Shown here piece after piece: positions 19,181-38,974 of a stretch of DNA of 38,974 bases. A program made the position numbers and the translations under genes. The notes beneath the pieces are model-generated. The model was given only the letters and a program-made list of their open reading frames with translations. It was not told the origin of the DNA and did no database searches. Source of the stretch: Deltaproteobacteria bacterium (GTDB lineage Bacteria > Desulfobacterota > Desulfobacteria > Desulfobacterales > C00003060); NCBI GenBank assembly GCA_019309815.1, contig JAFDFO010000003.1:1-38974 (forward strand), in the 5' to 3' direction. How positions within the stretch are numbered: the stretch's first letter is position 1; every line of letters starts with the position of its first letter.

Positions 19181-19733
19181 GTTTCCCCATGGCAGACGGG
19201 TTGAATCGAAACCCCAAATCGCGTACCCTCCGCACGCCCCAATCTAACTCTCGAAAATCCTGTGGAAGCATCCATTTCTTTGTTGATTCTTGACCAAAAA
19301 TGTGGTTATGTTCTGGGCGTTCAAAATTTGAACACTTGCCAATTTCCGGCAATTGATTTAATCATTCATTCTGAACTTGGCAATCCAGCTGTCACAACAA
19401 AAATATATACATATCAGTCGCTTATGGAAGGCGCCCTTGCGTAATCGACCAAGCGGAGCTGTGGCGCCGTACTTCATGCCTGACCCAACCTCCTCTCCAG
19501 AGCCAACTTCCCAAACCCCCCAGCCCATTGTACGTCTTCCCATGGTGTAAAACGGTTACGTTCAAGGGGAGTGGAGTATGCTGGGATCGAACATCTCGCA
19601 GAAGGGTGAGTTGATGAAAAAGGCCCTTATCTAGTTGCATATCTTACGGGACTGTTGACAGGCTGTATTGATGGTATGTTGGGTTACATAACTGAACAGA
19701 GAGTGCCGTTAACTTGCCATAGGATTGGTTAGC

Positions 19734-20423
19734 ATGGTTTTTAAAGATGAAGTAGAACAGCGTTACCGTGGAGAAGCTGGAAAGGGGTATCACCAAACAA
19801 CACATTCCGTCCCTGATTTGTCTTATTCGTGGGTTGCACAGCTTCGGGCGAGCAAGATCAGTCCTTATGTGCATAGGAAGGATACAGTACTTGAATACGG
19901 TGTGGGGATCGGCTGGAACCTGGCACGGTTAGAATGCGAAAGGAGGCTCGGTTTTGATCTATCCGAGAGCGTAGAACCTGTCATTCAGAGCCATGGCATT
20001 GAATTCGTGAGAGATGTCAGTAACATTGCCGACAAATCCATAGACATAGTTATCTGCCACCATGTGCTTGAACACACCAGCCATCCACCGGAAATCCTGG
20101 AAGAGATAAAGCGCATGCTTTGCCACAAGGGTAAACTCCTGTTGTTTGTTCCATACGAAAAAGAAAGACGATTCCGTCATTACAATTCAAAGCAAGCTAA
20201 CCATCACCTTTATTCCTGGAATGTACAAACACTTGGCAACCTTGTCGAAAATATGGGGTTAAAGGTCGTGGAAGGAAAGCTCGGGAGATTTGGTTATGAC
20301 CGTTTTGCAGCTGTCTGGGCCAGTCGGTTTCGCCTGGGTGAATCCGGATTCAGAGTGGTGAGAAGAGCGGTTCATCTTCTAAAGCCTATGTTTGAGGTTC
20401 GAGTCGTTGCTGAGAGGGAATAA
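19734..20423 (+). CDS. Class I SAM-dependent methyltransferase
   Basis: VLEYGVGIG, GFD, DIVICHHVLEH, G.LLLFVP. Confidence 0.9.
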   Translation: MVFKDEVEQRYRGEAGKGYHQTTHSVPDLSYSWVAQLRASKISPYVHRKDTVLEYGVGIGWNLARLECERRLGFDLSESVEPVIQSHGIEFVRDVSNIADKSIDIVICHHVLEHTSHPPEILEEIKRMLCHKGKLLLFVPYEKERRFRHYNSKQANHHLYSWNVQTLGNLVENMGLKVVEGKLGRFGYDRFAAVWASRFRLGESGFRVVRRAVHLLKPMFEVRVVAERE

Positions 20424-20756
20424 GGCCACTTACCCGGTAAAGCGGGCCCCTTGCCTGGTCTCTCCGAGCCGGTTTGACACCGGTGGTATGCGGCATGAAC
20501 CGTCGATGCAAATAGCTGTTATTGATGGATATTCTCATCCAGCAGGGTGTTTTTCAGGCTAACCGTTTGACGTTCCGTTTGGATACCTGTAAAAGGTCAC
20601 ATTTCCTCCGAATTTGTTGCTATGTCCTGACCACTGTGCATTCCTTCTATGAATTCCCTTGTCCCTTACCACACTTGATACGCGACGGGTCATTCCAGAA
20701 GGGTCGCCAATCGAGGTCCTTATGCGAAACCACATACTGATGACTGAGGAAAAACC

Positions 20757-22235
20757 ATGAAACGTGTCGTGTTGCTTTATCCATCGAACAAACTTGGGGG
20801 TTCAGTTCAACCGAGAGTTGAGTTGCCTTTAGGCCTTCTCAGCGTGGGCACACCGCTGGACAGGGCAGGGTATGACGTTAGGATCATAGATGAGAGGATA
20901 GACGAGCACTGGAGAGAAAGTCTTCTAGAAGAAATCAGAAAGGAGCCGATTTGCGTTGGGATAACCTCCATGACAGGGCCGCAGATACAAAGCGGGTTAG
21001 AGGCGTCGCGTTTTGTAAGACAGCATGGAAATATTCCGGTTGTGTGGGGAGGTATCCATGCCACGTTGCTGCCCGAACAAACACTGCAAAATGAAAATAT
21101 CGATATTGTTGTACAGAGAGAGGGGGAAGAAACCTTCTTTGAGCTAGTACAGGCACTGGAAAATGGCAAGGACCTAGCTCGGGTGAAAGGAATCTGGTAC
21201 AAGGAAGACGGAGAAACAAAAAACACGGGGCCAAGGCCTCTGATTAACTTGAACCAACAACCTCCGCTGTCATACCACCTGGTTGACATGAAGCAATACA
21301 TGGTCAACGTCTTCGGAGAGGGTCACATAAGCTTTGAGACAAGCAGGGGTTGTCCGTTTCAGTGTACTTATTGTTATAACTCCACGGTTTATAAAGGCAG
21401 ATGGAGGGGGTTGACGGTCGATGAGACGATAAGGCGAATCAAGTTACTCATAGAAGAGTATGGGGTGAAGGGCATATTGTTTTCTGATGATAATTTTTTC
21501 GGAAACAAGAAGAGGGCGCTGGAGATCCTGCGACGGATAGCAGAAGAAAACCTTGGAGTTCTGTTGTCCAAGATCGACGTTCATGTTTCGATGCTATCAA
21601 GGCTGACTGACAGCGAAATGCGCCTTATTAGGAGAAGCGGCTGTAAAATGGTGATGATGGGGATAGAATCAGGCTCGCCTAGAATGTTGAAAATAATGAA
21701 AAAGAGGATGAGGATTCCTGAGCTAATAGAAGTGAACAAAAGGTTAAAAAAATTCGATATCATGCCTCACTATTTTTTTATGATGGGTTTTCCTACGGAG
21801 ACCGAGGAAGATTTGGCCAAAACCATGTCGCTGAAAATGAGACTTTCATCTGACAACAGGCATGCGGTGCCGCGATTCAATATCTACACGCCTTTTCCTG
21901 GAACCGAGCTTTTCAACCTCTCAGTGAAAAATGGCCTTAAAGTTCCCCAGAAGCTGGAGGATTGGGTGTCATTCAATTATCGGACAGTAAATGACAGCGC
22001 TGTGTGGGTATCGGAGAGGATGAAGAAATTAATCCGTATGCTGCACTTTGCTACCCTGCTGGCAGAGCCGAATAACTTCATAAATTCTTACAAAAGGACA
22101 AGTTTTCCGGTAGCCCTCGCAGCAGCAATCTATTACCCCATCGCAAAAATGAGGGTGAAAAATTTGTACTATCAGTTTCCGATTGACCTAAAACTCGCAG
22201 AATTGTTGGGCGTCTATCCAAAACAAGGAGGGTAA
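20757..22235 (+). CDS. Cobalamin-binding radical SAM protein (paralog 1)
   Basis: B12-binding N-domain (PLGL, VVWGGIHAT, EGE), SRGCPFQCTYC, DDNFF, GIESGS, FMMGFPTET, PFPGT. Confidence 0.93.
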   Translation: MKRVVLLYPSNKLGGSVQPRVELPLGLLSVGTPLDRAGYDVRIIDERIDEHWRESLLEEIRKEPICVGITSMTGPQIQSGLEASRFVRQHGNIPVVWGGIHATLLPEQTLQNENIDIVVQREGEETFFELVQALENGKDLARVKGIWYKEDGETKNTGPRPLINLNQQPPLSYHLVDMKQYMVNVFGEGHISFETSRGCPFQCTYCYNSTVYKGRWRGLTVDETIRRIKLLIEEYGVKGILFSDDNFFGNKKRALEILRRIAEENLGVLLSKIDVHVSMLSRLTDSEMRLIRRSGCKMVMMGIESGSPRMLKIMKKRMRIPELIEVNKRLKKFDIMPHYFFMMGFPTETEEDLAKTMSLKMRLSSDNRHAVPRFNIYTPFPGTELFNLSVKNGLKVPQKLEDWVSFNYRTVNDSAVWVSERMKKLIRMLHFATLLAEPNNFINSYKRTSFPVALAAAIYYPIAKMRVKNLYYQFPIDLKLAELLGVYPKQGG

Positions 22236-22239
22236 TGAA

Positions 22240-23727
22240 TTGAAGGATAAGGGGCACATTGTTCTTTTCACCCCCGCCGTGAGAATGGGAAAAGAGCAAC
22301 AAAGAAGGACCGGCATACCTTCCGGTTTGCTCGCCATAGCGACACCGCTAGACCTGGCAGGGTATACGATCAAGATAATCGACCAGAATTTTGAAGACAG
22401 ATGGAAGGATATGCTTCTCTCAGAACTGAAGAAGAGACCAATCTGCGTGGGCGTGTCGGCAAAGACCGGTCCTCAGATCAAATATGGGATCGAGGCATCG
22501 AGGATGGTCAAGCAATACGATACAATTCCAGTGGTCTGGGGAGGCGTCCATGCCAGTTTGGCTCCGGAACAGACACTCGCGAATGAGAACATTGATATCG
22601 TTGTTCAGGGAGAAGGGGATGAAACATTCTTTGAACTCGTTCAGGCGTTGGAAAAGGGCGAGCCTCTGAGCAAAGTCAGAGGAATCTGGTACAAAGAAAA
22701 TGGTGAAATCAAGAAGACCCAACCCAGACCGTTTATCGATTTGGAGAAGCAACCTTCGCCCTCATACCATCTCATAGACGTGAAAAAAGTCCTGGTAAGG
22801 AGTTTTGGTGAAGATCACCTCAGGTTTTCAAGTGCCAGAGGGTGCCCATACAGGTGTGGTTTCTGCTACAACACGACATTCTACAAAAGAAGATGGAGGG
22901 CCTTATCAGCTGAAAGAACATATGAAGAGATAAAGAAAATAAGGACCAAATTCGGGATCAGGGGTATTCGGTTCTCAGATGATCTCTTCTTTGGGGATGT
23001 AGAAAGGGTCAGAAAGCTCCTCACAAAGATTGTGGATGAAAAACTCGATGTCGTTGTCACAAAGCTAGACATACACGTGAACGAGCTTTCCAGACTGGAC
23101 GATGATTTTTTGAGACTCCTTGAAAGGGCTGGGGCTAAGGCACTCGTGGTGGGAGTGGAATCCGGCTCTCAGAGGATTCTGGATCTGATAAAGAAGGGAA
23201 TCAAGATTTCAGAGGTTATTGATTTCAACAAGAGGGTGGCGAAATTCAACCTGATCCCCAAATATTGCTTTATGATGGGATTTCCTACTGAGACGAAAGA
23301 AGATATTCGTGAGACCGTTGCCCTGATTTTTCGACTTTTGGAAGACAACAAAGAAGCCATAAAAGACATCAACATTTACACGCCGTATCCCGGCACGGAA
23401 CTGTTCCATTTATCTGTCAAGCACGGGTTTAAACCCCCGGAAAAGCTTGAAGGTTGGGTATCTTTTAACTGGCGTACTATCAACAGAAAGCGTACGCCCT
23501 GGATCACGAAGGAGAGGGAGCGGTTGTTAAGAATGCTCCATTGTTCTTCGCTATTCTTGGAGAAGAACTACTTCCTGGAGCCACAATGGCCCACAAACCC
23601 CTTGGTTGTCATGTTGGCCAGGCTTTATCACCCCATAGCCAAGAAAAGGGTTGAGAATCTGTATGATAAGTTTCCAATAGAGATTAAATTGGTGGAGTGG
23701 CTACGTCTGTATCCAAAGCAGGTTTGA
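22240..23727 (+). CDS. Cobalamin-binding radical SAM protein (paralog 2)
   Basis: Same architecture as paralog 1: ARGCPYRCGFC, DDLFF, GVESGS, PYPGT. Confidence 0.93.
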   Translation: MKDKGHIVLFTPAVRMGKEQQRRTGIPSGLLAIATPLDLAGYTIKIIDQNFEDRWKDMLLSELKKRPICVGVSAKTGPQIKYGIEASRMVKQYDTIPVVWGGVHASLAPEQTLANENIDIVVQGEGDETFFELVQALEKGEPLSKVRGIWYKENGEIKKTQPRPFIDLEKQPSPSYHLIDVKKVLVRSFGEDHLRFSSARGCPYRCGFCYNTTFYKRRWRALSAERTYEEIKKIRTKFGIRGIRFSDDLFFGDVERVRKLLTKIVDEKLDVVVTKLDIHVNELSRLDDDFLRLLERAGAKALVVGVESGSQRILDLIKKGIKISEVIDFNKRVAKFNLIPKYCFMMGFPTETKEDIRETVALIFRLLEDNKEAIKDINIYTPYPGTELFHLSVKHGFKPPEKLEGWVSFNWRTINRKRTPWITKERERLLRMLHCSSLFLEKNYFLEPQWPTNPLVVMLARLYHPIAKKRVENLYDKFPIEIKLVEWLRLYPKQV

Positions 23728-23866
23728 AAAAGGCAGCAAAGAATCGCCCTCAAAGATGTTCAGTTCCTATATCAGATGGGGCTGTCCGCCTGAAGGAGAC
23801 GCCGGCGGGGCGGGGAATACCGTTGTTTCTGCCGTTCAGAATAGTGTTTGTGGGTTAGAATAAAGC

Positions 23867-25003
23867 ATGGCAACACTGAATGAAAAGGTGAGATTGTTCA
23901 GAGGGCTGCTTACCGGTGAGACCGCCGAAGCAGGGCCGTTCTATGTCCTGGTGGACGTCACGCGTTCATGCAATCTCGCCTGTCTGGGATGTCGCTATCA
24001 TTCTCCTCACGTGAAGGTCCCGTCACCAGGTGACAGGAGCAAGAAGAACATCTCTTTCCATCTCTTCAGGGAACTGTGCAAGCAACTCAGGGCCATGGGT
24101 ACAGGGAGGTTAATTCTAACGGGAGAAGGGGAACCCTTTCTCCACCCTCGTCTCCTGGAAATGATTTCTACTGCCAAGAGCGTGGGACTTCACGTCACCT
24201 TGTTTACCAATGGTACGTTGCTTGACGAAGGCAAGGTACAATCGCTCATAGATTCTCAACTCGATGTCCTGACAGTGAGTCTGTGGGCTGGTTCACAAGA
24301 AGAATACGAACGAAACCACCCAGGCGCGGGGCCGGAGTACTTCAACACCATTGTTGATGCTCTCCAGCGTATGGCCCGTCTCAAGGCCGACCAAGCGAGT
24401 CATCTTCCCTCAGTTGTTATGCATCATCCTATATATCGCAACAACTTTGGCAGTATCCAAGCAATGGCTGACCTTGCTCAAGAAACGGGGTGCAATACGC
24501 TGTCTTTTTCTCCGCTCAGAACCCGGCGGGGGAAACTAGAGTCATTTGCTCTGACCCAGGATGAGACGAGACTCTTAAGCCTGAACTTGGCGGGGATCAA
24601 GAGGCGGCTGGATTCACTTGCCATAGGGCACAATATAGACAATACCATTTTGCGCTACCGGACGGGCGAAAAGGTGTGGGAAAAAGTGCCTTGTTACGTT
24701 GGCTGGGTCCAGGCTCATATCAAAGTGGATGGTACAGTCCTCCCGTGCAATTCATGCAGCTTGCCGATGGGCAATCTCAATGAGGACAGGTTGAGCGATA
24801 TATGGAATGGCCCTTCTCTGAAAAGGTTCCGCAGGCAGACGCTTACGAAAGAAGGCCTGGCACACGTGGGGTTGCACTGTGACTGTCATTTCTGTTGCCA
24901 TGTGGAGGACAACATGCGTGTTCACCGGATCTTTCGCTGGTTTTCGCCCTTTTTACCCGGCAAGAGAAACAGAAAAGCGTGGTTGCCTCTTGAGACATCG
25001 TAG
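23867..25003 (+). CDS. Radical SAM protein with SPASM/twitch domain
   Basis: CNLACLGC, GEGEPFLHP, TNG, C-terminal CYVGW..DG.VLPC..C...GN...IWN...CDCHFCC. Confidence 0.92.
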   Translation: MATLNEKVRLFRGLLTGETAEAGPFYVLVDVTRSCNLACLGCRYHSPHVKVPSPGDRSKKNISFHLFRELCKQLRAMGTGRLILTGEGEPFLHPRLLEMISTAKSVGLHVTLFTNGTLLDEGKVQSLIDSQLDVLTVSLWAGSQEEYERNHPGAGPEYFNTIVDALQRMARLKADQASHLPSVVMHHPIYRNNFGSIQAMADLAQETGCNTLSFSPLRTRRGKLESFALTQDETRLLSLNLAGIKRRLDSLAIGHNIDNTILRYRTGEKVWEKVPCYVGWVQAHIKVDGTVLPCNSCSLPMGNLNEDRLSDIWNGPSLKRFRRQTLTKEGLAHVGLHCDCHFCCHVEDNMRVHRIFRWFSPFLPGKRNRKAWLPLETS

Positions 25004-25101
25004 CTCAAAGGGTCTTTAGGATACGATCCCTTGTCATCCTTGCGGTTCAATCCCTCTGAAGCGGGACTGCAGGGATTTTCAATTCTTTGTTTGGAAGCCG
25101 A

Positions 25102-26703
25102 ATGAATCGCACATCAGGGGTTCGAATTGAAGAGCTTTGGTTGGGTACCCGCTTCCTCCTGGAGTTGCCGTTTTTCCTGCGACGTCCGGTGCAAAGGAAG
25201 GAAGCGGACAAATGTCTCCGACTCCGTTTTGAGAAAAGGCAGCCCCGGTTTCTGAACCTGGTGCGTGACACCATTTACAGCGCACCTGGGAGTCCTTATC
25301 GGAAACTTCTTGGCTGGGCGGGGTGCGAGGCCGGAGACCTGGAGAAGCTGGTCCATCACGAAGGTGTTGAAGGAGCACTCACAGAATTGTGCCGAGCAGG
25401 GGTCTATCTTACCGTGGATGAGTTCAAGGGCCGTTGCCCGATCGTTCGGGGCAGTCAAAAGCTCACAGTTCAACCCCATCTCTTTCACAACCCAACCCCA
25501 TCTCCCTCCATAGGCATTCGAACCAGCGGCAGTCGAAGCGCCGGTATTCCTGTACCGGTGGATTTCGCGTTTATCCGAAGCCGCTCAATAAACGCCTTGC
25601 TCGGCCTGTCAGCCCGAGGAGGAAATGAATGGCATCATGCCGTCTGGGGAATTCCGGGCGGCTCGGCAATGGTTCACCTGCTGGAATTCAGCGGGTTTGG
25701 GATCCACCCTGTGAAGTGGTTTTCGCACGTGGATCCGGCGACACCGGGACTACATCCGCGCTACCATTGGAGTGCCCTCACACTCCGTTGGGCAGGATTC
25801 CTGGGAGGCGTGTCCCTTCCCGGTCTGCAGTATGTTCCGGTCAGTGATCCTTTGCCGATATTGGACTGGTTTATCCAGGTTCTGCGCTCCGGCAAGGTGC
25901 CTCACCTTCTCACCTACATGAGTTCTGCTCTGCGTCTTTGCCGGGCAGCAGAGGAAATGGGTGTCGAAATTCCTGGGGCTCAATTCACGGTGTTGGGAGA
26001 GCCGGTCACAGAGATTGGTCTGTCCACAATACGGCGGACCGGAGCAGAGGCCGTTTCCAGATACGGCAGCGCCGAGTGTGGAACAATCGGGTATGGATGT
26101 CTCAGACCTGAAGCGCCCGATGAGGTGCATCTCCTACACGATCGCGTGGCCCTCGTTCAGGTAAAAGAAGAGAACAAGGATGCGGGAATCCCTTCGGGCG
26201 CGCTTTTCGTTTCTACGCTTGAGTCAGCCACACCGTTTATTCTGCTGAATGTTTCACTCGGGGATCAGGCGGTTATGGTAGAACGCGACTGCGGGTGTCG
26301 TCTCCAAGAACTCGGCTGGACAAGACACCTGCACTCAATCCGCAGCTATGAAAAACTCATTGCCGGAGGCATGTCGTTCTTAGATACGGACCTGGCCCTG
26401 GTGATGGAGGAGACCCTCCCGGAACGCTTCGGAGGTGCTCCGACGCACTATCAGTTGCTGGAAGACAGTGACGAGGGGGGACTCCAATGTTTTCGGCTTC
26501 TGGTGCATCCCGAGGTGGGGCCGGTCGAACCTGAGGCAGTCGTCGAGACATTCCTGACCGCCCTCAGTTCGGGCAATGGGGTTGAAAGGATGATGGGTAT
26601 GGTGTGTAAGGATGCTCAGCTCCTCACCGTGGAGCGTACCCCTCCTTTGACGACAAGTTCGGGCAAGATTCTCCATTTTCACCAGGCGCGCCAGGCACCT
26701 TGA
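25102..26703 (+). CDS. PaaK/CapK-like adenylate-forming (acyl-CoA ligase-like) protein
   Basis: RTSGS (A3-like), GEP, RYGSAECG, LLNVSLGD...CGC, terminal SGK. Confidence 0.75.
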   Translation: MNRTSGVRIEELWLGTRFLLELPFFLRRPVQRKEADKCLRLRFEKRQPRFLNLVRDTIYSAPGSPYRKLLGWAGCEAGDLEKLVHHEGVEGALTELCRAGVYLTVDEFKGRCPIVRGSQKLTVQPHLFHNPTPSPSIGIRTSGSRSAGIPVPVDFAFIRSRSINALLGLSARGGNEWHHAVWGIPGGSAMVHLLEFSGFGIHPVKWFSHVDPATPGLHPRYHWSALTLRWAGFLGGVSLPGLQYVPVSDPLPILDWFIQVLRSGKVPHLLTYMSSALRLCRAAEEMGVEIPGAQFTVLGEPVTEIGLSTIRRTGAEAVSRYGSAECGTIGYGCLRPEAPDEVHLLHDRVALVQVKEENKDAGIPSGALFVSTLESATPFILLNVSLGDQAVMVERDCGCRLQELGWTRHLHSIRSYEKLIAGGMSFLDTDLALVMEETLPERFGGAPTHYQLLEDSDEGGLQCFRLLVHPEVGPVEPEAVVETFLTALSSGNGVERMMGMVCKDAQLLTVERTPPLTTSSGKILHFHQARQAP

Positions 26704-26836
26704 TGGGTTTATGTCTCTCACTTTGCCGGATGCTTTCTAAAGGGAATGAAGGATAGGAGTTCAACCTGGTAGAATAAAGCGGAAACAGGGTTTCCCCAAA
26801 ATCTTTTTGTAGTCAGATGCCTAGGAGGTCTCTACA

Positions 26837-28312: not shown

Positions 28313-28489
28313 GAAGGAGGGGGTTTTTGCGGACGCCCGACGGGTTTGAACTTGGACAGTGACTGCAACTTTTCATGATAAGAAACTCTTTTCGAAGACA
28401 ATAGACTTCATGAATTCAGAGCGACTGCGACTTCACGCAAATCCGACCTGAACACTTGGAAACTAGACCAAGGGAAAAGACATAAATAA

Positions 28490-29305: not shown

Positions 29306-29352
29306 ACCGTCTTTCATTGTCAGACTTCTTTTCGGTCAATATCTTTACATAG

Positions 29353-30495: not shown

Positions 30496-32525
30496 AACCC
30501 GTTCTGCTGTTAGTGGATCTGCAAAAGGATTTCCTGTCCAGGCCGGCCCTGGAGCCTCCGGCTGAGGAACTCATCCCACGAGTGGGGCAGTTGCTCAAAG
30601 GCTGCCGGGAGTTAGGCGTTCCCGTTATTCATGCCCATACAGTGGTTCGGGCTGACGGGGAAGACCGGATGCCGCACTGGAAGAGCGCAGGGATTTGGGA
30701 GTGTATTGCAGGCAGACCGGGTTCAGCCCCCCCCGAGGAATTGCAACCACGAGACCAGGAGCCGGTTTTTGAAAAGCAGTTCTACAGTGCCTTTGCTGAC
30801 AGGTCCCTTCACGCCACGCTGGAAGAGTTAGACGCAGATACGCTCATTGTAGCGGGGGTCTACCTGCACGGATGCGTGCGCTCCACGGTTATGGATGCCT
30901 ACGAACGGGGCTTCGAGATCTGGGTAGCAGAAGACGCCACAGCTTCCACCGAAGCCGTTCATGCAAGAGTAACCAAGGACTACCTCGCAGATCGCATGGC
31001 CACCTTCCTCTCCTCTGACACGATACTGGCCAGACTCAAAAGGAATGGAACGGTTCTCCGAACCCCTGGGGTGAGGGTCCATCCGGTAGGCAATATTGGA
31101 GGGGACTGGTTGGGGGCATCCAGCCATGGCCTGTGGGAACAGAGAAACCCGTCGAAATGGGACGAAATTCTGGGCCTGATACCGCTGGCGTCACGGGAAG
31201 AAGTAGCCGGTGCCGCCGCTGCTTCCAGGAGTGCACAGGTCGACTGGCGTCGGATTTCGCCAAGGTCCAGGAGCGAACTGCTTATTGCCTGGGCGGCGAA
31301 GTTGGCAGGGCGGGAAGCCGATTTCGCGGGTCTCATGGCACTCGAGCTGGGCAAACCGATCGGTGTCGGTCACGATGAGGTACGTTTTGCGGTGGAATTG
31401 CTCCACGAAACGGCCTCCATCGTGGCCAGAGAGCAGGCTCTGACGGGCTACGACCTAAATAGGGCCAAAACCCGTTCTTGTCCGGTGGGCGTCATTGGAG
31501 TTATTACTCCTTGGAATAACCCGATTGCTATTCCTGTTGGAAAGCTGGGGGCGGCCATTGTCTTTGGCAACGGTGTTGTGTGGAAAGCAGCCCTTCAGGC
31601 TCCCCGCACCACAAGACTGGTCCTTGAGACGCTGTTTGAGGCTGGACCGCCCAATGGACTGGTGAACCTCCTTTTCGGGGGTGTGAACACGGCTAAGCAG
31701 CTGATTCTTCAGCCCGAGGTTCAAGGGATATCACTGACCGGGTCTTGTGCAACGGGCAGGGAAGTGGCAAGGCTGTGCGCTCGTTTTCCGAAGCCCTTTC
31801 AGGCGGAGCTGGGAGGAAACAACGCTGCCATTGTCATGCCGGACGCAGACGTGGAAAGGGCCGCGCAGGAGTTAGCGCTGGCGGCTTTCAGCTTTTCGGG
31901 CCAACGCTGCACTGCAACACGGCGGTTCATCGTGCATCGAGACATACGTAAGGGTTTCATCGAGGCATTGGTCGCTTCCATAAACGCTTTGAAGTTGGGC
32001 GATCCCCTGGATGTTGAGACCCAGATGGGGCCGGTCATCTCCCGGACAAAGCAGACAAGGCTCGAAGACCTGGTGAAAGCTGCTGTTTCCCATGACGCAA
32101 GGATTCTGTGTGGGGGGAGAATTCCGGCCGAGTGGGACTTTGGATGCTGGTTTGAACCCACACTTCTGGACACCCCGGAACCGACCCTTGGCGTGGTTCA
32201 GGAAGAGACCTTCGGTCCGATCGCCGTACTTCAGACGGCCAAGGACTTGGATGATGCCTTGTCATTGCTCAACGGGGTACCTCACGGTCTTGTCGCCAGC
32301 CTCTATTCAGAAGACCCTGCCTGTCAAAGACGTTTCCTGGAAGGGGCAGAAGTCGGGATTCTGAAACTTAACCAGTCCACTTTGGGGGCAGCACCCGGGG
32401 CTCCTTTCGGGGGCTGGAAGGCCTCTGGCGTGGGCCCCCCCGAGCACGGTGTGTGGGATCAGATATTTTACACCCGACCGCAGGCTTTGTATGGACAGTC
32501 TCTGGATGAAGACGCACTGCCGTGA
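30492..32525 (+). CDS. Fusion protein: isochorismatase-family cysteine hydrolase plus aldehyde dehydrogenase
   Basis: N-terminal VDLQKDF / FEKQFYSAF / GCVRST triad. C-terminal ITPWN.P, LTGS, ELGG, GQRCTA, EETFGP, PFGGWK.SG. Single uninterrupted ORF overlapping the upstream stop (ATGA). Confidence 0.92.
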   Translation: MKPVLLLVDLQKDFLSRPALEPPAEELIPRVGQLLKGCRELGVPVIHAHTVVRADGEDRMPHWKSAGIWECIAGRPGSAPPEELQPRDQEPVFEKQFYSAFADRSLHATLEELDADTLIVAGVYLHGCVRSTVMDAYERGFEIWVAEDATASTEAVHARVTKDYLADRMATFLSSDTILARLKRNGTVLRTPGVRVHPVGNIGGDWLGASSHGLWEQRNPSKWDEILGLIPLASREEVAGAAAASRSAQVDWRRISPRSRSELLIAWAAKLAGREADFAGLMALELGKPIGVGHDEVRFAVELLHETASIVAREQALTGYDLNRAKTRSCPVGVIGVITPWNNPIAIPVGKLGAAIVFGNGVVWKAALQAPRTTRLVLETLFEAGPPNGLVNLLFGGVNTAKQLILQPEVQGISLTGSCATGREVARLCARFPKPFQAELGGNNAAIVMPDADVERAAQELALAAFSFSGQRCTATRRFIVHRDIRKGFIEALVASINALKLGDPLDVETQMGPVISRTKQTRLEDLVKAAVSHDARILCGGRIPAEWDFGCWFEPTLLDTPEPTLGVVQEETFGPIAVLQTAKDLDDALSLLNGVPHGLVASLYSEDPACQRRFLEGAEVGILKLNQSTLGAAPGAPFGGWKASGVGPPEHGVWDQIFYTRPQALYGQSLDEDALP

Positions 32526-32583
32526 CCAACCGATTTGTCAGATATACCTTCCGAATATTTTGCCTTGTGAGGGGATTTCCTGA

Positions 32584-33585
32584 TTGATGGATTCCTTTCA
32601 AGGTCCAACAGTCTCGATTATCATACCGGTATACAATGGAGGGGAGAAGTTTCGGCGTTGTTTGTCAAGTGTTGCGGCATGTACCCCTCCTCCGGAAGAA
32701 GTCATCGTGGTGGCAGATGGCGACACCGACGGCTCCTGGCGTGTGGCAGAGGAATACGGGACTCAGGTTCTCAGAATGCCTACCCCTGGGGGACCTGCCC
32801 GAGCACGAAATCTGGGCGCGGGAGAGGCAAAGGGGGACATCCTTTTCTTTGTTGATGCAGACGTGACCATCCCGCAAGATGCCATAAGCCAAGTCGCGGG
32901 GGCATTTCAGGACGATTCCGAGTTATCTGCTATTTTCGGGTCTTATGATGACGCGCCGTTTGAGACAAATTTTTTGTCACAGTACAAGAATCTTTTTCAC
33001 CACTATGTCCACCAGGGTGCTAAGGAAGATGCCTCCACCTTCTGGGCAGCTTGCGGGGCAATTCGCCGCGGGGTGTTTTCTGCAATGGGAGGCTTTGACG
33101 AGGCATACCGCCGACCCTCCATTGAAGACATAGAGTTGGGTTACAGGTTCAGAAGGGCTGGCCACAAAATTCGTCTCCTGAAGGGACTCAAAGTGAAGCA
33201 CCTGAAGCGCTGGGGTATTGTTTCCCTTTTGCGAGCCGACTTCTTCTACCGGGCCTTGCCCTGGACGGATTTGATTTTGCGTGAAAGCGAGTTCATCGAC
33301 GACCTGAACGTAACAATCTCCAACCGCGTAAGTGTCATATTTACTTACGTATTTTGCCTGGCCTTGTTGGGGTCGTGGTGTATGCCATGGCTTCTTCCTG
33401 TTGCCCTTCTCGCGATGATAGGGCTGCTTGTGATTCATTGGGATTTCTATCGTTTCTTCAAAGATAAACACGGCTGGGCATTTGCGGCAAAAACAATCCC
33501 CTGGCACTGGTTTTATTTCTTCTACGGCGGACTGGCTTTTGGTATAGGTTCTGCGAAGTTTCACTTTGAGAGACTAAGATCCTGA
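32584..33585 (+). CDS. Glycosyltransferase family 2 with C-terminal TM helices
   Basis: VSIIIPVYNG, VADG.TD, GPARARN.G, FVDAD, GGFDE, EDIELG.R. Confidence 0.93.
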   Translation: MMDSFQGPTVSIIIPVYNGGEKFRRCLSSVAACTPPPEEVIVVADGDTDGSWRVAEEYGTQVLRMPTPGGPARARNLGAGEAKGDILFFVDADVTIPQDAISQVAGAFQDDSELSAIFGSYDDAPFETNFLSQYKNLFHHYVHQGAKEDASTFWAACGAIRRGVFSAMGGFDEAYRRPSIEDIELGYRFRRAGHKIRLLKGLKVKHLKRWGIVSLLRADFFYRALPWTDLILRESEFIDDLNVTISNRVSVIFTYVFCLALLGSWCMPWLLPVALLAMIGLLVIHWDFYRFFKDKHGWAFAAKTIPWHWFYFFYGGLAFGIGSAKFHFERLRS

Positions 33586-33589
33586 TGGC

Positions 33590-35398
33590 ATGCCGGACAT
33601 CATCTCGGACCAGCACCAACCGAAACTGGCCATGAGTAACGAATCTGTTGTTATCATAGGAGGCGGCCCTGCAGGTCTGTCAGCAGCCCATGAGTGCATT
33701 AAGGGGGGCATCAAGCCCATTGTGCTCGAAAGGGCTGACAAGGTCGGAGGGATTTCACGCACAGAGACCTACAAAGGCTACTATTTCGATATTGGGGGGC
33801 ACCGTTTCTATACAAAGATTGAGGAGATTGACCGGCTGTGGCACGAAATGCTCGGCGACGATTTTCTCAAGGTCCGTCGGATGTCCCGCATTTATTATCA
33901 GGGCCGTTTCTTCAACTATCCCCTTGGGTTTGCCAATGCCCTGATGAACCTGGGGTTGGTTGAAACCTCTCTGATCCTGTTGAGCTATCTTAAGGCGCAG
34001 GTCTGGTCCCACCCGGAAGAAGTAAACTTCGAGCAGTGGGTGTGTAATCGTTTTGGCCAGCGTCTCTATCAGACGTTTTTTCGGACATACACGGAGAAGG
34101 TGTGGGGAACCCCTTGCCATAAGATTCAGGCCGACTGGGCGGCGCAGCGCATCAAAGGATTGTCACTTATTGTGGCGGTGTCTAATGCGCTTTTCGGGGG
34201 CCAGAAAGCGAAGACCTTGATCAGTGAGTTTGACTACCCATTAAGGGGTCCGGGAATGATGTGGCAGCGTTTCCAGGATGTGGTGGGGGCAAATGGAGGG
34301 GAGGTCCGACTCAACACAGACGCTACTGGCCTGAGCCATGAAAATGGCCGAATCGTGAAGGTGAATTACGTTGACAACGGCGAAACAGTAACCATCCCGG
34401 CTGACCAAGTCATTGCCAGTATTCCCGTCACCAGGCTTGTAGCCTTGCTTGATCCGAAAGCACCGAAGCATGTCCTCGAGGCGGCTTCCAACCTTTCCTA
34501 TCGGGCATTTGTTCTTGTGGGACTTATTGTTGACCGGGAAGACCTTTTTCCGGACCAGTGGATATATGTACACAGTCCCGATGTGAGGGTTGGGCGCATT
34601 CAGAACCTCAAGAACTGGAGTGCAGCCATGGTCCCCGATCCTAAGAAGACAAGTGTGGCAATGGAGTACTTCTGTAACGAAGATGACGAAACCTGGACGA
34701 TGCCCGATAGTGAACTGATAGACCTGGCATCTCAGGAATTGTCCAAGCTGGGACTGGCTGACACTGATGATATCATGGACGGGTTTGTAATACGCCAGCC
34801 AAAGGCATACCCGGTCTATGATGATGCATACAAAGAACATCTCATGGTCGTTCGGGATTACCTCGCGACCTTCGACAATCTCCAAACCGTAGGCCGAAAT
34901 GGCATGCACCGATACAATAATATGGACCATTCGATGCTCACGGGAATGCTTGCCGCCCGAAACTTGTCTGGCGCAAATCACGACCTGTGGGAGATAGGTG
35001 AACAGGACGAGTATCTTGAAGCAGATAAAAAGGCGAAAGCCCAACGGCTCGTTCCTGAGAAAATACTCACAAAGACATTTGCCAGGATAGACAAGCTGGC
35101 ATTTGCAACAGCCATAGGAGGCGTATCAGGCCTGTTCATGTTTCTTGCGACCATTTGGCTGGTCATGAAGGGGGGCGAAATGGTCGGCCCCACTCTCAGG
35201 CTTCTCTCCCAGTATTTTGTTGGCTATTCCGTGACCGTAAGAGGGGCCTTTGTTGCTTTTGGTTACACGTTCTTCTGCGGCTTCTTGTTTGGCTGGCTGT
35301 TTGCCTATCTTCGGAACCTCTTTCTTGCCTTCTACGTCTATAGTGCAAAGAAGAAAGCTGAGTTGCTGTCTCTCAGAGATTTTTTTGATAACCTGTAG
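33590..35398 (+). CDS. FAD-dependent oxidoreductase (UDP-galactopyranose mutase/HemY-like) with C-terminal membrane domain
   Basis: GGGPAGL, DIGGHRF, YTEKVWG, AYPVY, GRNGMHRYNNMDHSM. The last ~110 aa are hydrophobic. Start at 33590 or 33632. Confidence 0.85.
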   Translation: MPDIISDQHQPKLAMSNESVVIIGGGPAGLSAAHECIKGGIKPIVLERADKVGGISRTETYKGYYFDIGGHRFYTKIEEIDRLWHEMLGDDFLKVRRMSRIYYQGRFFNYPLGFANALMNLGLVETSLILLSYLKAQVWSHPEEVNFEQWVCNRFGQRLYQTFFRTYTEKVWGTPCHKIQADWAAQRIKGLSLIVAVSNALFGGQKAKTLISEFDYPLRGPGMMWQRFQDVVGANGGEVRLNTDATGLSHENGRIVKVNYVDNGETVTIPADQVIASIPVTRLVALLDPKAPKHVLEAASNLSYRAFVLVGLIVDREDLFPDQWIYVHSPDVRVGRIQNLKNWSAAMVPDPKKTSVAMEYFCNEDDETWTMPDSELIDLASQELSKLGLADTDDIMDGFVIRQPKAYPVYDDAYKEHLMVVRDYLATFDNLQTVGRNGMHRYNNMDHSMLTGMLAARNLSGANHDLWEIGEQDEYLEADKKAKAQRLVPEKILTKTFARIDKLAFATAIGGVSGLFMFLATIWLVMKGGEMVGPTLRLLSQYFVGYSVTVRGAFVAFGYTFFCGFLFGWLFAYLRNLFLAFYVYSAKKKAELLSLRDFFDNL

Positions 35399-35427
35399 TT
35401 GATTTACCGACGTCAGGAGATTTTATC

Positions 35428-35748
35428 GTGAAAACAAAGAATGAAAACCAGACGACGGAAGAAGAAAGGCTGTTTCGTGGGGTCCTCTGGCTGAACGCTA
35501 AGGCTCTCGGGCTTGTTCTCGGCTTGCTGTGCGGCCTTGCGGTATTTGTCGCGACAAACTGGCTTGTGATCAAAGGAGGGGATCCGGTGGGCCCGCACCT
35601 GAGACTCTTGAGTCAGTACTTCATTGGCTACAGGGTTTCTTTTCTTGGCAGCCTCATTGGGTTTGTTTATGGTTTTGCGGTGGGGACCTTGAGCGGAGCA
35701 CTCATTGGGTGGATTTATAACGCGGTTGCCTCGTTCAGGAAATCCTAG
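35428..35748 (+). CDS. Small membrane protein, paralog of the oxidoreductase C-terminal domain
   Basis: ATNWLVIKGGDPVGPHLRLLSQYFIGYRVS aligns with ATIWLVMKGGEMVGPTLRLLSQYFVGYSVT. AGGAG RBS, GTG start. Confidence 0.85.
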   Translation: MKTKNENQTTEEERLFRGVLWLNAKALGLVLGLLCGLAVFVATNWLVIKGGDPVGPHLRLLSQYFIGYRVSFLGSLIGFVYGFAVGTLSGALIGWIYNAVASFRKS

Positions 35749-35788
35749 CTCTTTCCATGATGTACCTCATTCTCCCCTGATAAAAACG

Positions 35789-36598
35789 ATGTCCGACAGT
35801 TATACCAGCCATTATTGGGACACGATTGTTGAAAGACCGGGCGGCAGGGACCATGAAGATTTATGGAGAGCCCACCTGCAAGGGATTTACAGGGAGTTAA
35901 TGGACAGATGGACAGTCGGTTCCCCGGATGGACTTATCCTCAAGACCGATCTATATGACGAAGCCGTAAGCAAGTATAATCTTCTACCTTTGTGCAGGGG
36001 GAAGTGTGGGCGTGTCATTGGAACAGATGTTTCTTTTGAAGTTGCGGCGGCAGCCAAAGAAAGGATGACCAGAACATGGGACGGTTGGCATAATGCTGTG
36101 TGCGCTGACGTCAGGCGGTTACCGTTCATGTCTGAGTCATTTGACGCTGTCATCTCTAATTCAACGCTGGATCACTTTTCACATAAGGAGAGTATCCTGG
36201 CGAGCCTTAGAGATATTCACAGATTGTTGAAGCCCGGAGGATCACTGCTCATTACCCTTGACAACCCATCAAATCCAGTCATCTTCTTAAGAAATGCGGT
36301 TCCTTACAGGTTATTGAAGGGCTCCCGACTTATTCCGTTCTACATGGGGGTCACTTTGTCAGAATCTCAACTGGTCCGCATTTTGGAAGTGTGTGGTTTT
36401 GAAGTTCATGAGACCATGGCCATTGTCCACAGCCCCCGTATTCTCGCCATTTGGACGGGACACATCCTGAACAGGACGGGGAACAAAAAGATAAAGCAAT
36501 ATGCGAGACAGGTTCTTAGGATATGTGAACGGCTGGAAAAACTCCCGACGAGATATCTGACCGGGTATTATGTTGCCGCAATAGCTACGAAGAGATAA
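35789..36598 (+). CDS. Class I SAM-dependent methyltransferase (atypical motif I, LKTDLYDEA)
   Basis: GTDVS, ADVRRLPF..ESFD.VISNSTLDH, LLKPGG.LLIT. Start at MSDSY. Confidence 0.85.
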   Translation: MSDSYTSHYWDTIVERPGGRDHEDLWRAHLQGIYRELMDRWTVGSPDGLILKTDLYDEAVSKYNLLPLCRGKCGRVIGTDVSFEVAAAAKERMTRTWDGWHNAVCADVRRLPFMSESFDAVISNSTLDHFSHKESILASLRDIHRLLKPGGSLLITLDNPSNPVIFLRNAVPYRLLKGSRLIPFYMGVTLSESQLVRILEVCGFEVHETMAIVHSPRILAIWTGHILNRTGNKKIKQYARQVLRICERLEKLPTRYLTGYYVAAIATKR

Positions 36599-36743
36599 GT
36601 TGCATTCTCCTCGCCCCTAAACGCGAACCCCTCAAGATCGCCCAGAAGTCTCATCGAGTCATGCAACAGGCGGCTTTCATTTTGGTGTGAAAGCCGTCTT
36701 TGGGGCTATCTGTCAACACATAAGAAGTAAAATACAGTTGCCA

Positions 36744-37604
36744 ATGATCAGGAAATACGCAAAAGGGACCCTGCCGAACCTGATAATAATTGGGGCCCAA
36801 AAATGCGGTACAACAAGTCTGCATTACTATTTGGGCCTTCATCCCCAAATATCGATGTCCAGAGAAAAAGAGCTGGAATTCTTCATGGAAGACCGTACCT
36901 GGCACAAGGGGATCGAATGGTACAAGTCACATTTCATGACCAGGGCGAAGGTTCACGGGGAGTCGTCGCCTAACTACACAGCTTATCCTAGATGGGAGGG
37001 CGTGCCGGAGAAAATGCATTCTGTCATACCGGATACCAAATTGATCTATATCCTTCGAGATCCCATTGATCGAATGGTTTCTCAGTATGTTCAATACCTG
37101 TCGGTAGGATTGGACAACAGGGCAGTAGAAATCGCTTTCAAACCTCTTAATAATGACAACTACTATGTTCGCAGGAGCAGATACTTTATGCAACTGCAGC
37201 AATATCTAAAATATTTTCCGAGCTCCAATATTCTGATAATGACTGCGGAGGATTTGCTCAATGAGCGTCGAAAAACATTGGAGAAGGTATTTGCATTCTT
37301 AAATGTTGATGAAACCTTCTATTCCCCAAAGTTTCTCAACCTCAAGCATGGGTCTGTCGGAAGAAGGCAGAAGAACCGGATTGGTTTGCTTCTGAAGCAG
37401 TTTGCCGAAAGCAATATTGCAAAGATATTTTCAACTGACGTGCGAATGAAGATTGGGGGAGTGATAGAATTGGCGTTCTCGACTGAAATTGCCAGACCCG
37501 TATTGGGTGAGAGCTTACGGGCCGAACTGATTAGTTTTTTCAAAGAGGATACAGATCCTTTGAAAGAATTCACCGGCTCCGATTTTGCGGCCTGGTGTGT
37601 ATAG
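36744..37604 (+). CDS. Sulfotransferase (heparan-sulfate sulfotransferase-like)
   Basis: PNLIIIGAQKCGTTSL, KE.EFF, WY...F, GESSP.Y, KLIYILRDPIDR.VS. Start at 36744 or 36687. Confidence 0.9.
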   Translation: MIRKYAKGTLPNLIIIGAQKCGTTSLHYYLGLHPQISMSREKELEFFMEDRTWHKGIEWYKSHFMTRAKVHGESSPNYTAYPRWEGVPEKMHSVIPDTKLIYILRDPIDRMVSQYVQYLSVGLDNRAVEIAFKPLNNDNYYVRRSRYFMQLQQYLKYFPSSNILIMTAEDLLNERRKTLEKVFAFLNVDETFYSPKFLNLKHGSVGRRQKNRIGLLLKQFAESNIAKIFSTDVRMKIGGVIELAFSTEIARPVLGESLRAELISFFKEDTDPLKEFTGSDFAAWCV

Positions 37605-37755
37605 CTCCTGCAAATTAGTCATAAATGAAAAGGCGCGGGGCAGTCTTTCAGCGAAAAGAACAACTCGGATGTTTTGAAACCCATGGAAACGGTGAAGTGT
37701 CCTCAGGAATCCTCCCCTGTGTCCGGCCAATGACAGAACAACCAATCAAATTAGC

Positions 37756-38974
37756 ATGAACAGAGTGAATCAACCTTCTCAGCACCTTGTTCGCAACATG
37801 ATGACAGGAAGTATCCGCATCTTCTTTGCTGAGGTGCTGATAATTCCTGTCGGATTCATAACAGCGGTCTTTCTTGCCCGCCAACTCGGCCCGGTTAACT
37901 TTGGCCTATTTGCCATAGCCTTAAGGCTTGTCACATGGGTCGAGTGGACCAGCCTGACCGTCTTTTACAGCGCCACAGTCAAGTTTGTTAGCGAGGAAGA
38001 TGATTGGCGGGCGGTTGGGACTACGGTAGTTCGGCTGCATCTTGTAGTAGGTGTTGGTATTGCAGCTTTGCTATGGATAACGGCTTCGCCTTTAGCCCGT
38101 GCATTCAATGAACCGGCCATGGCCACCTACCTGAAGCTTTTTGCCATAGATATTCCGATTTTTAGCCTGTTCTCCGTACATAGCAGCATCTTGGTTGGAA
38201 GGGGTTTGTTCAAGGAGCGGGCCTGGACTCGTTTTGTTCGTGGAGATGGGCCTGTCTGTTAACGGCGCGATTATAGGAGTCATTGGTGCCTCCATGGTTG
38301 GATTGATAATGAGCAGATTTTTTATCAGACCCCCTGTCTTTTCCGGAGCTACATTCCCAGTGCGGCGTCTGTTGGGCTTCTCAGCTCCAGTTTTCATGTC
38401 GTCGCTGAGTTTGCGAATGCTCAGGCTGGACGTAATCGCCCTAAAGGTGCTGGGAGCAACGGCTGCCCAGGTGGGCTTCTATAGTGCGGGACAGAGCCTG
38501 TCCATTCATACTAGTCTGCTTTCCGGGGCACTCTCTCCACCTTTGCTGTCCACTTTGAGCCGCTTGATTAGACAAGGAGATGAGTCCAAGGCCAAAGATA
38601 TTGGGCGGACCGCGATGCGTTTGGTGATTTGGCTGCTGCCGTTTGCTGCGATGACGGCTGGGGCAGCTACGGAGATAGTTGACCTTGTTTTCGGCAAGGA
38701 ATTCGTGTCTGCCGGTCCAATTTTGGCCTATTTGATCTTTGCAGCCGTGGGGTTTATCGGTATCACCATGGCAAGGGCCATCATCCTTGCTATAGGGAGG
38801 CCCGGCTGGACTTTCCTGGTGACCGGTCCGATGTTCCCAATAGCCGTCATTGGTTATCTGATCCTCATACCATGGATGGGTGGGGTTGGAGCAGCAATTG
38901 TAACGACTTGTGCCACCTGTTTGGCAGCGGTTGCCTCATTTCTGGCTGTCTACAAGCTTTGGGGAATCCTGCCG
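37756..38974 (+). pseudogene. Wzx-like oligosaccharide flippase, frameshifted, 3' end beyond the window
   Basis: First frame gives LARQLGPVNFG..., stopping at 38262. From about 38228 the +1 frame (LVLFVEMGLSVNGAIIG...LD...VGFYSAG...FGKEF) stays open and hydrophobic to the window end. Confidence 0.8.

Follow-up and report, generated by a model that had tools for sequence, protein, structure and literature searches.

Fifteen consecutive genes on the plus strand of contig JAFDFO010000003.1, from a Desulfobacterales metagenome-assembled genome (MAG; Deltaproteobacteria bacterium, GCA_019309815.1), unite a glycan-type membrane cassette with four radical S-adenosylmethionine (SAM) enzymes, two methyltransferases, two sulfotransferases and a trio of putative acid-handling enzymes. 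We analysed the whole contig of this sediment-derived relative of sulfate reducers, which is 38,974 nucleotides long and is called the window here. The explanation that we favour, and to which we give about an even chance of being right, is that these genes make up a single pathway, accessory and assembled by horizontal transfer, whose product is a decorated glycoconjugate unit linked to a lipid. The proposal builds on the genes present and their tight packing on one strand, on protein folds and preserved catalytic motifs, and on the conservation of modules and the links between them. In particular, the modules are cross-linked in four distant lineages, of which a Competibacteraceae MAG is the clearest case. 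Judging from the enzyme families, the product would be methylated, sulfated and acylated.

Gene content of the locus

A sequence-only reading of the same DNA had described fifteen consecutive plus-strand genes, among them four radical SAM enzymes, two methyltransferases, two sulfotransferases, dehydrogenases, a hydrolase, a family 2 glycosyltransferase (GT2), a mutase-like oxidoreductase and a flippase. Open reading frames (ORFs) and family matches place all fifteen at 19725-38974, and Pfam and NCBIfam bear out the tally. Neighbouring genes are separated by gaps of at most 334 bp, and every family-matched ORF of at least 100 amino acids (aa) between 19725 and 38974 lies on the plus strand. The genes, numbered g01-g16 with g15 and g16 being one flippase, are as follows.

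19725-20423 (ATG 19734), plus strand: g01, class I SAM methyltransferase (Methyltransf_23, E 4e-16)
20757-22235, plus strand: g02, B12-binding radical SAM enzyme (B12-binding and Radical_SAM, Pfam)
22240-23727, plus strand: g03, B12-binding radical SAM enzyme, paralogue of g02 (B12-binding and Radical_SAM, Pfam)
23867-25003, plus strand: g04, radical SAM/SPASM enzyme (Radical_SAM and SPASM, Pfam)
25087-26703, plus strand: g05, putative PaaK-like adenylate-forming ligase, 538 aa (fold match only)
26837-28312, plus strand: g06, HemN-like radical SAM enzyme (Radical_SAM and HemN_C, Pfam)
28490-29305, plus strand: g07, sulfotransferase (Sulfotransfer_3, E 9e-17; Sulfotransfer_1, E 2e-9)
29353-30495, plus strand: g08, Iso_dh-family beta-decarboxylating dehydrogenase (Iso_dh, E 2e-72)
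30492-32525, plus strand: g09, fusion of a cysteine hydrolase of the isochorismatase fold with an aldehyde dehydrogenase (ALDH) (Isochorismatase, E 4e-38; Aldedh, E 2e-119)
32584-33585, plus strand: g10, membrane-embedded GT2 (Glycos_transf_2, E 3e-28)
33590-35398, plus strand: g11, UDP-galactopyranose-mutase-like flavoprotein of the FAD/amine-oxidase type (NF005548, 673.9 bits, cut-off 389)
35428-35748, plus strand: g12, small membrane protein, 106 aa, paralogue of the g11 C-terminal domain
35705-36598, plus strand: g13, class I SAM methyltransferase (Methyltransf_11, E 2e-16)
36687-37604, plus strand: g14, sulfotransferase (Sulfotransfer_1, E 8e-22)
37756-38262 and 38195-38974, plus strand: g15/g16, MOP-family (Wzx-like) flippase in two frames (Polysacc_synt_3, Polysacc_synt)

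Several of the start codons are uncertain; that of g05 is probably at 25102, and that of g13 probably at 35789, as suggested by the 269-aa sister ORF. The source MAG comprises 2.88 Mb in 416 contigs (92.33% completeness, 5.29% contamination), and the contig ends inside the locus, whose 3′ end is therefore an assembly break; the locus is known from MAG contigs only and is 3′ truncated. The locus is preceded by housekeeping genes (for Tol-Pal, RuvCAB and a SAM hydroxide adenosyltransferase) and a small minus-strand set (DUF6473, GNAT and thioesterase). NCBIfam equivalog matches of the locus proteins stay far below the curated cut-offs, with the exception of NF005548 for g11 and a borderline HemW match for g06; by sequence, none of the locus enzymes is assignable to a named functional family. 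An Rfam scan of the whole window returned no family at gathering score and no tRNA, so that the window has neither a riboswitch for cobalamin or SAM nor a tRNA that could have served as integration site. A scan for promoter-like sites (15 versus 16.5 expected) and terminator-like sites (23 versus 22.4 expected) was uninformative.

The locus in a sister genome and within the genus

The same genes occur in the same order, at 88-97% amino-acid identity, in a sister MAG (G006), where they are split between two contigs, the first with g01-g09 and the second with g10 and the genes after it. The homologue of g01 (93-95% identity) stands where the sister contig L002 begins with a break, and none was found in the distant analogues. 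The sister flippase is intact (507 aa) and is followed by a SPASM radical SAM gene, a GT2 gene and a second SPASM radical SAM gene up to the contig end; the sister thus shows how the locus continues and places radical SAM enzymes on both sides of the glycan genes. It also carries a second HemN-like gene (L002:8441-9919, 65% identical to g06) between g06 and g07, where the window has the gap 28313-28489.

Elsewhere in the genus, the full-length g09 fusion was found in 2 of 37 genomes, and three genomes followed from the RuvB anchor (G001, G027 and G019) contain no g01-g16 gene there; in two of them the SAM hydroxide adenosyltransferase gene follows RuvB. With the fusion in so few genomes, no locus gene beside RuvB in these three and a GC content that runs from 0.45 to 0.57 along the genes, we regard the locus as accessory, which we counted in favour of a glycan product because surface-glycan loci are usually accessory. 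The DUF6473 gene of the window (16220-17272, flanked by those for the SAM hydroxide adenosyltransferase and GNAT) is absent in the sister and present in only 1 of the 37 genus genomes.

Linkage of the modules in distant lineages

A profile scan with g09 returned 277 relatives in species genomes. The loci considered here are the best 80 of these, drawn from more than 10 phyla, and counts out of 79 are the same set minus the sister. A g08 homologue adjoins the fusion in 74 of the 80 loci, the other six being short or cut contigs. An adenylate-forming enzyme is encoded in 41 of the 79, mostly within ~1.5 kb of the fusion, and is of an AMP-binding-like type in 28 loci, of a PaaK-like 462-aa family in 10 and of the g05 type in 6, with two types in 3 loci. 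Other recurrent partners are GT28-like proteins (9 loci), HemN-like radical SAM enzymes (8), methyltransferases (9) and PCP-thioesterases; the neighbour clusters unk437, unk438 and x709 are probably antisense shadow ORFs in high-GC genomes and were left out.

The acid-handling genes meet the glycan genes in four distant lineages. In the Competibacteraceae MAG (L251/L261), a hexapeptide acyltransferase, two GT4 glycosyltransferases, a B12-dependent radical SAM enzyme (59% identical to g02), Iso_dh and the fusion are followed by a g05-like ligase, a protein joining flippase and methyltransferase, another ligase and, lastly, a GT2 (43-47% identical to g10). An Acidobacteriota MAG (L253) has Iso_dh, fusion, ligase and flippase; a deltaproteobacterial MAG (L198) has a GT2 (55%), a HemN-like enzyme, Iso_dh, fusion and flippase; and a Nitrospinota MAG (L034) encodes Wzy_C, Bac_transf, UDP-GlcNAc 2-epimerase, homologues of g05 (59%), of the GT2 (60%), of g11 (51%) and of g13 (40%), and PMT_2. 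The flippase-methyltransferase protein is a single 743-aa frame (L251:11347-13578) in which a MOP flippase (52% and 47% identical to g15 and g16) is fused with a g13-like methyltransferase; g13 homologues were found in this locus (38%), in L034 and in L096 (37%).

The radical SAM genes are found in comparable company. Homologues of g02 (57-63% identity) occur in L005 and L251, adjoining ligase, Iso_dh and ALDH genes, and in L098, adjoining a g06-like gene; homologues of g03 (42-46%) adjoin g04-like SPASM genes in L093, L094 and L096. A single-protein scan with g04 returned the sister contig only; among 300 other Desulfobacterota genomes, g04 homologues (38-55%) were found in 7, next to g11, g12, GT2, flippase and PMT_2 genes, or to genes for a B12-dependent radical SAM enzyme, a g13-like methyltransferase and a g14-like sulfotransferase. 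A g14 homologue (49%) adjoins SPASM genes in L097.

The g10-g11-g12 cassette itself recurs in the same order in relatives. Its neighbours are Wzy_C, GT61, GT10, two GT4 and a GT2 in G011; a GT2, a nucleoside diphosphate (NDP)-sugar transferase, an epimerase, a C-methyltransferase and a GT4 in G052; SPASM, GT2, PMT_2 and flippase genes in G188; and VTC, DUF4956 and CotH genes in G008.

Taken together, sub-clusters of the locus, which the sequence-only reading proposed to look for, recur in other phyla, and its placement of the radical SAM and acid genes with the glycan genes agrees with their repeated co-location in distant lineages. That reading was to count as refuted if the enzymes belonged to known cofactor or amino-acid pathways and were not found together elsewhere; on the second point it stands, as the co-location is conserved.

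Two further associations were seen beside these. In four MAGs of the Smithellaceae/Syntrophaceae (L201, L222, L224 and L241), the Iso_dh/fusion pair sits in a conserved block of ~10 genes, which encodes an ADP-forming acyl-CoA synthetase pair, a 91-aa protein, a 908-913-aa AMP-binding protein, Iso_dh, the fusion, an NAD-dependent epimerase, a cytidylyltransferase of the CMP-sugar type, an HI0933-like flavoprotein and DUF2600. In two congeneric genomes of family f75 (L093 and L094), the g04-like SPASM and g03-like B12-dependent enzymes are paired with a zinc alcohol dehydrogenase, and in L096 the SPASM/B12 radical SAM pair shares an operon with HMGL-like, pyridoxal phosphate (PLP)-dependent, nitroreductase and Glu/Leu-type dehydrogenase genes.

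The glycan cassette, methyltransferases and sulfotransferases

The hydrophobic C-terminal third of g10 (model pLDDT 89.6) agrees with a membrane-embedded enzyme, and the longest structural matches are the cellulose-synthase-like BcsA, PcManGT and hyaluronan synthases, with query-normalised TM-scores (TMq) of 0.58-0.64. We also considered a polyprenyl-phosphate sugar synthase as the identity of g10 and set it aside, since generic GT-A folds came up in the fold search besides BcsA, PcManGT and the hyaluronan synthases, and the result does not discriminate.

The likeness of g11 to UDP-galactopyranose mutase (UGM, Glf) is confined to residues 19-353, which align with eukaryote-type UGMs, the nearest relatives in the PDB (E 6e-21). 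Unlike UGM, g11 fails TIGR00031 (38.6 bits versus a cut-off of 303.75), belongs to the uncharacterised NF005548, and continues into a C-terminal membrane domain with transmembrane segments at 502-572, of which g12 is a free-standing paralogue (39% identity to g11 residues 480-581, E 1e-21, BLASTP). The two genes are kept side by side in L085, L086, L087 and L092, and for the membrane parts of both the sole NCBIfam hint is a sub-threshold match to 'holin_4'. Based on their sequences, the C-terminal domain of g11 and g12 may pair in the membrane.

Both sulfotransferases, g07 and g14, match PF13469 and PF00685 above the cut-offs and have P-loop-like motifs. An RSGTT-type loop near the N-terminus of g07, and KCGTT and RDPIDR in g14, are what we take to be the sulfotransferase motifs. 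Because an APS kinase is encoded elsewhere in the MAG (contig C194, 228 bits), the sulfate donor 3′-phosphoadenosine 5′-phosphosulfate (PAPS) can be made.

The putative acid-handling trio

No Pfam match was obtained for g05 even at E<=5, no NCBIfam match, and nothing below E 1 when it was searched against the PDB with phmmer. The AlphaFold model built with 31 homologues (pLDDT 88.8), by contrast with these profile searches, matched PaaK1 (E 1.2e-16), PaaK2, BT_0428, NatL2 and AjiA1 in Foldseek at probability 1.00 and E 1e-16 to 1e-12 (1e-16 to 1e-14 for PaaK1, PaaK2 and BT_0428). Going by this model, g05 is a PaaK-type adenylate-forming enzyme at the level of fold, and the 'ligase' of the sequence-only reading was right at that level. 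With these proteins g05 shares the two-domain fold, an invariant C-terminal lysine and the glutamate of the YGSxE motif (Lys527 and Glu330, invariant in the 31 homologues); the former is presumably the A10-motif lysine of the ANL enzymes. Unlike the PaaK family, with which it has 15-17% identity, g05 is ~100 residues longer, has an N-terminal helical extension and is covered by no Pfam or NCBIfam model. The family has at least 1348 homologues at E<=1e-3 (8000 candidates scored), and none of the 120 listed carries a Pfam domain. Members at 50-57% identity are spread across Methylomirabilota/Rokubacteria, Chloroflexota, Acidobacteriota, Armatimonadota and Actinomycetota, with several copies per MAG of the Rokubacteria type (the 'binchicken_co279_6' MAG accounts for 8 loci).

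For g08, the closest PDB proteins are 3-isopropylmalate dehydrogenases (E 5e-62), and the score lies under the leuB cut-off; two other Iso_dh genes are located elsewhere in the genome, making g08 the third. The hydrolase half of g09, aligned to 3hu5, retains Asp9, Lys95 and Cys128 in VDxQxDF, K..SAF and G....C motifs. We take these residues to be the catalytic triad and to point to a cysteine amidohydrolase, not to a true isochorismatase. The ALDH half retains ELGGN and GQRCTA.

The radical SAM enzymes

All four radical SAM proteins have the CxxxCxxC motif, which reads CPFQCTYC in g02 and CPYRCGFC in g03 (residues 199 and 202). Both g02 and g03 match PF02310 and PF04055 above the cut-offs, the domain pair of class B (B12-dependent) radical SAM enzymes. 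In this domain pair and in the cluster motif they resemble the HpnJ, HpnR, PhpK, BchE and AprD4 families of B12-dependent enzymes that tailor sugars and lipids, which give the best, though weak, profile matches; the top NCBIfam matches of g02 are BchE, HpnJ, ApyD and PhpK. They differ from these families in that all scores are far under the cut-offs (177 versus 481 for BchE and 159 versus 578 for HpnJ). GenK is another B12-dependent radical SAM tailoring enzyme.

The g06 protein (~491 aa) scores 208.2 bits against TIGR00539 (HemW, cut-off 205.4) and 183.8 against HemN (cut-off 324.95), and is 31-37% identical to named HemW. It belongs to a small separate clade of ~13 proteins at >=53% identity, beyond which come HemW-like proteins at 31-37%. 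No g06 homologue was found at E<=1e-70 in 300 other Desulfobacterota genomes, and a metagenome scan with the clade found close relatives in 2 of 80 loci (L098 and L099), the remainder being generic HemN/HemW. On metagenome contigs, members of the clade adjoin g02-, g04- and g05-like genes.

A proposed pathway

If the genes act together, g10, g11 and g12 would jointly make a sugar, or remodel one, on the cytoplasmic side of the membrane. A small carboxylic acid would be prepared by g08 and g09, and g05 would activate it as an acyl-adenylate and couple it, through an amide or ester bond, to the sugar or to its carrier. The two B12-dependent, the SPASM and the HemN-like radical SAM enzymes would act without oxygen on carbon centres in either the acid or the sugar, most likely by C-methylation. 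The methyltransferases g01 and g13 could then add O- or N-methyl groups and the PAPS-dependent g07 and g14 sulfate, before the MOP flippase carries the finished unit across the inner membrane.

Evidence against a single pathway and alternative explanations

Several observations weigh against this proposal, in which every substrate, the order of the steps, the attachment of the acid to the sugar and the place where the product ends up are what we infer. The flippase of the window lacks 35 bp near 38226-38229, which results in a frameshift and two frames, and the end of the contig truncates it further. Both the sister MAG and a 90-95% identical contig from run X4 have these 35 bp, and no near-identical contig spans the site. 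None of the sequencing runs contains at least half of the sampled words (the best is X1, with a share of 0.22, and the shares of the others are small), and the two X1 contigs of 151-224 bases that are identical to the window where they overlap it fall short of the 35-bp site. The gene may truly be a pseudogene, or the frameshift may be an artefact of the assembly.

In addition, no priming transferase, Wzy or exporter is found among the window ORFs, which include one glycosyltransferase (GT) only, and the MAG, at 92.33% completeness, gave no match to Bac_transf (PF02397), a search that did not extend to WecA-type enzymes. The same MAG has Wzy_C on contigs C4 and C37 and Poly_export on C43. Of the earlier claim that the locus serves biosynthesis of a surface glycan or glycolipid, the glycan character of the 3′ half stands, given the Wzy_C, GT4, GT10, GT61, NDP-sugar enzyme, PMT_2 and flippase genes around the cassette in relatives, whereas the surface polymer does not follow from the window, where priming transferase, Wzy and exporter are missing. 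Methylation, sulfation and acylation are predictions from the enzyme families, and a sugar is the putative attachment site of the 'purpose-built substituent' in that claim.

The distribution of the acid-handling module also counts against a dedicated glycan pathway. The B12 radical SAM/ligase/Iso_dh/fusion module stands alone in an Acidobacteriota locus (L005), between CstA and an extracytoplasmic function (ECF) sigma factor, and in an Aminicenantes locus (L007), where the 10-kb flanks contain no glycan gene; within 8 kb, neither locus has one. A GT or flippase gene of any kind was recognised in 20 of the 79 fusion loci and not in the other 59, the 20 being a lower bound from a rough BLAST count against annotated references. 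As many as 58 of 62 loci with g05 homologues lack a strong multi-gene match to the window (eight of the 58 have one or two weak matches of 25-33%, for example to g09, g13 or g02/g03). No family is common to more than 4 of these 62 loci among the 833 neighbouring ORFs, and Pfam assigns a miscellany to 60 flanking ORFs.

Finally, a Rieske oxygenase of the VanA/LigXa type (by Pfam) is encoded in 17 of the 79 fusion loci, often directly after Iso_dh and the fusion. The wider g08/g09 family thus unites Iso_dh, ALDH and Rieske proteins, a likeness at family level only to the carnitine operon of Acinetobacter baumannii, which serves carnitine degradation and comprises TDH (Iso_dh family), the CntAB Rieske oxygenase and a malate semialdehyde dehydrogenase (PMC6562126). 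Given that operon and the 17 loci, the g08/g09 pair could, by analogy, be degradative. Unlike that operon (PMC6562126), the window has no Rieske match among its ORFs, its ALDH is fused to a cysteine hydrolase, and the g08/g09 pair lies among ligase, radical SAM, sulfotransferase and glycan genes; the Rieske partners in other loci also differ in being of the VanA/LigXa type.

Such observations would be expected if unrelated units merely lay side by side, a small-molecule module (g02-g09) for making or degrading a free organic acid, an osmolyte or a cofactor-like compound having landed by the glycan cassette (g10-g16) in a variable island. We consider this unlikely, while giving it real weight. 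The solitary modules of L005 and L007, the 59 or more fusion loci without a recognised glycan gene, the frequent Rieske partners, and the PCP-thioesterase and AMP-binding partners, these last two typical of small-molecule pathways, all speak for it, as does the breakdown of carnitine by the same family triad in Acinetobacter; the GC content, varying from 0.45 to 0.57, is also mosaic along the locus. However, chance proximity does not readily account for four independent distant lineages in which the module stands by a MOP flippase, by a window-like GT2 and methyltransferase, or by both, nor for the recurrence of SPASM and B12-dependent radical SAM homologues next to the glycan cassette. Moreover, radical SAM genes flank the flippase on both sides in the sister MAG, and a sulfotransferase (g07) lies within what would be the small-molecule half.

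A second alternative keeps the genes together and changes the product: they may modify a membrane glycolipid or lipid head group, for example by sulfation and methylation, rather than a polymer, in which case the MOP protein would flip a lipid and the flavoprotein and B12-dependent enzymes would act on it in the manner of HpnJ, HpnR and CrtI-type enzymes, to which they are distantly related. A single GT in a window without Wzy or priming transferase would fit such a product, as would two membrane-embedded enzymes (g10 and g11) and the occurrence of the cassette outside polysaccharide loci, among the VTC, DUF4956 and CotH genes of G008. The weak best NCBIfam neighbours of g02 and g03 even include the hopanoid and lipid enzymes HpnJ and HpnR and a 'lipid biosynthesis B12-binding/radical SAM protein'; nevertheless, all lipid-enzyme matches are far under the curated cut-offs. 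Because g11 is, in addition, far nearer to UGMs (E 6e-21) than to phytoene desaturases, which match in the Rossmann region only, and because G011, G052 and L034 have the cassette next to genes for Wzy_C, more than one GT and NDP-sugar enzymes, we regard a lipid product as rather improbable.

It is very improbable that the radical SAM block matures a ribosomally synthesized and post-translationally modified peptide (RiPP) that is later glycosylated, sulfated and exported: although B12-dependent and SPASM radical SAM enzymes are common RiPP maturases, and ApyD, the C-methyltransferase family TIGR03975 and sactipeptide maturases appear among the weak NCBIfam matches, all RiPP-family matches are far under the cut-offs, the nine intergenic gaps contain no credible precursor ORF (in a sequence scan without comparative support, the small ORFs look random), no peptidase, LanB/C, YcaO or ABC exporter is found among the window ORFs, and g03 and g04 homologues elsewhere keep company with Zn-dehydrogenases, with amino-acid and oxo-acid enzymes, or with glycan genes.

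Comparison with known systems

In agreement with the sequence-only reading, which could match the locus to no characterised pathway, our literature search, which covered journals other than subscription ones, found no description of this gene combination. The frame appears, from its sequence, to be of a known kind, a Wzx-type glycan locus, and of the features that define the class the window has the flippase alone; where Wzx/Wzy-type loci have several GTs that build a repeat unit, one GT2 lies in the window and one more in the sister continuation up to its contig end.

The closest parallel that we can draw is the xss (synechan) cluster of Synechocystis 6803, described as comprising 8 GTs, Wzx, Wzy, PCP, regulators and two sulfotransferases of different subfamilies, with the modification enzymes expected to act on the lipid-linked unit before flipping (PMC8205485). 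Like xss, the locus brings together a MOP/Wzx flippase, a GT and two sulfotransferases in one accessory cluster. Unlike it, the locus has radical SAM, ligase, Iso_dh and ALDH genes, which do not appear in the xss gene list as given there (PMC8205485), the window has one GT and no Wzy, PCP or priming GT, and the host is an anaerobic member of the Desulfobacterales. The authors of that work state that they are aware of no sulfotransferase genes in other bacterial extracellular polysaccharide clusters and that, among bacteria, sulfated extracellular polysaccharides are unique to cyanobacteria (PMC8205485).

Should the single-pathway proposal hold, bacterial sulfated glycans would reach beyond cyanobacteria. 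It would equally mean that radical SAM chemistry, otherwise known from antibiotics, cofactors and RiPPs, tailors envelope glycans in anaerobes, for which we found no description in the literature.

A wider generalization is tentative and, in our view, doubtful: the trio would represent a widespread, undescribed pathway that makes a small organic acid and grafts it onto lipid-linked glycans, with oxygen-independent tailoring (B12-dependent and HemN-like radical SAM) in anaerobes and Rieske-based tailoring in aerobes, and would here, with the two sulfotransferases, contribute to a sulfated, C-methylated and acylated envelope glycan, a sulfated surface glycan of a sulfate reducer rather than a cyanobacterium. 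The Rieske and HemN-like partners of the fusion may be the oxygen-dependent and oxygen-independent versions of one step. As a separate observation, the two occur together in 4 fusion loci, and the split is not clean.

Regardless of whether the product is a glycan, two uncharacterised families have been isolated here, the PaaK-like ligase (at least 1348 homologues) and the hydrolase-ALDH fusion (277 relatives), the latter accompanied in nearly every case by an Iso_dh paralogue and frequently by a ligase.

Other genes of the window

Outside the locus, the SAM hydroxide adenosyltransferase gene (SAM_HAT_N/C, 15292-16116) lies between ruvB and the accessory region, and occupies the same place in G006, G001 and G027. 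On the minus strand at 136-2113, genes for a C_GCAxxG_C_C redox protein, a rhodanese and a MauE/DoxX membrane protein stand in a row adjoining metG, the first two of the ORFs overlapping by ~185 bp as listed.

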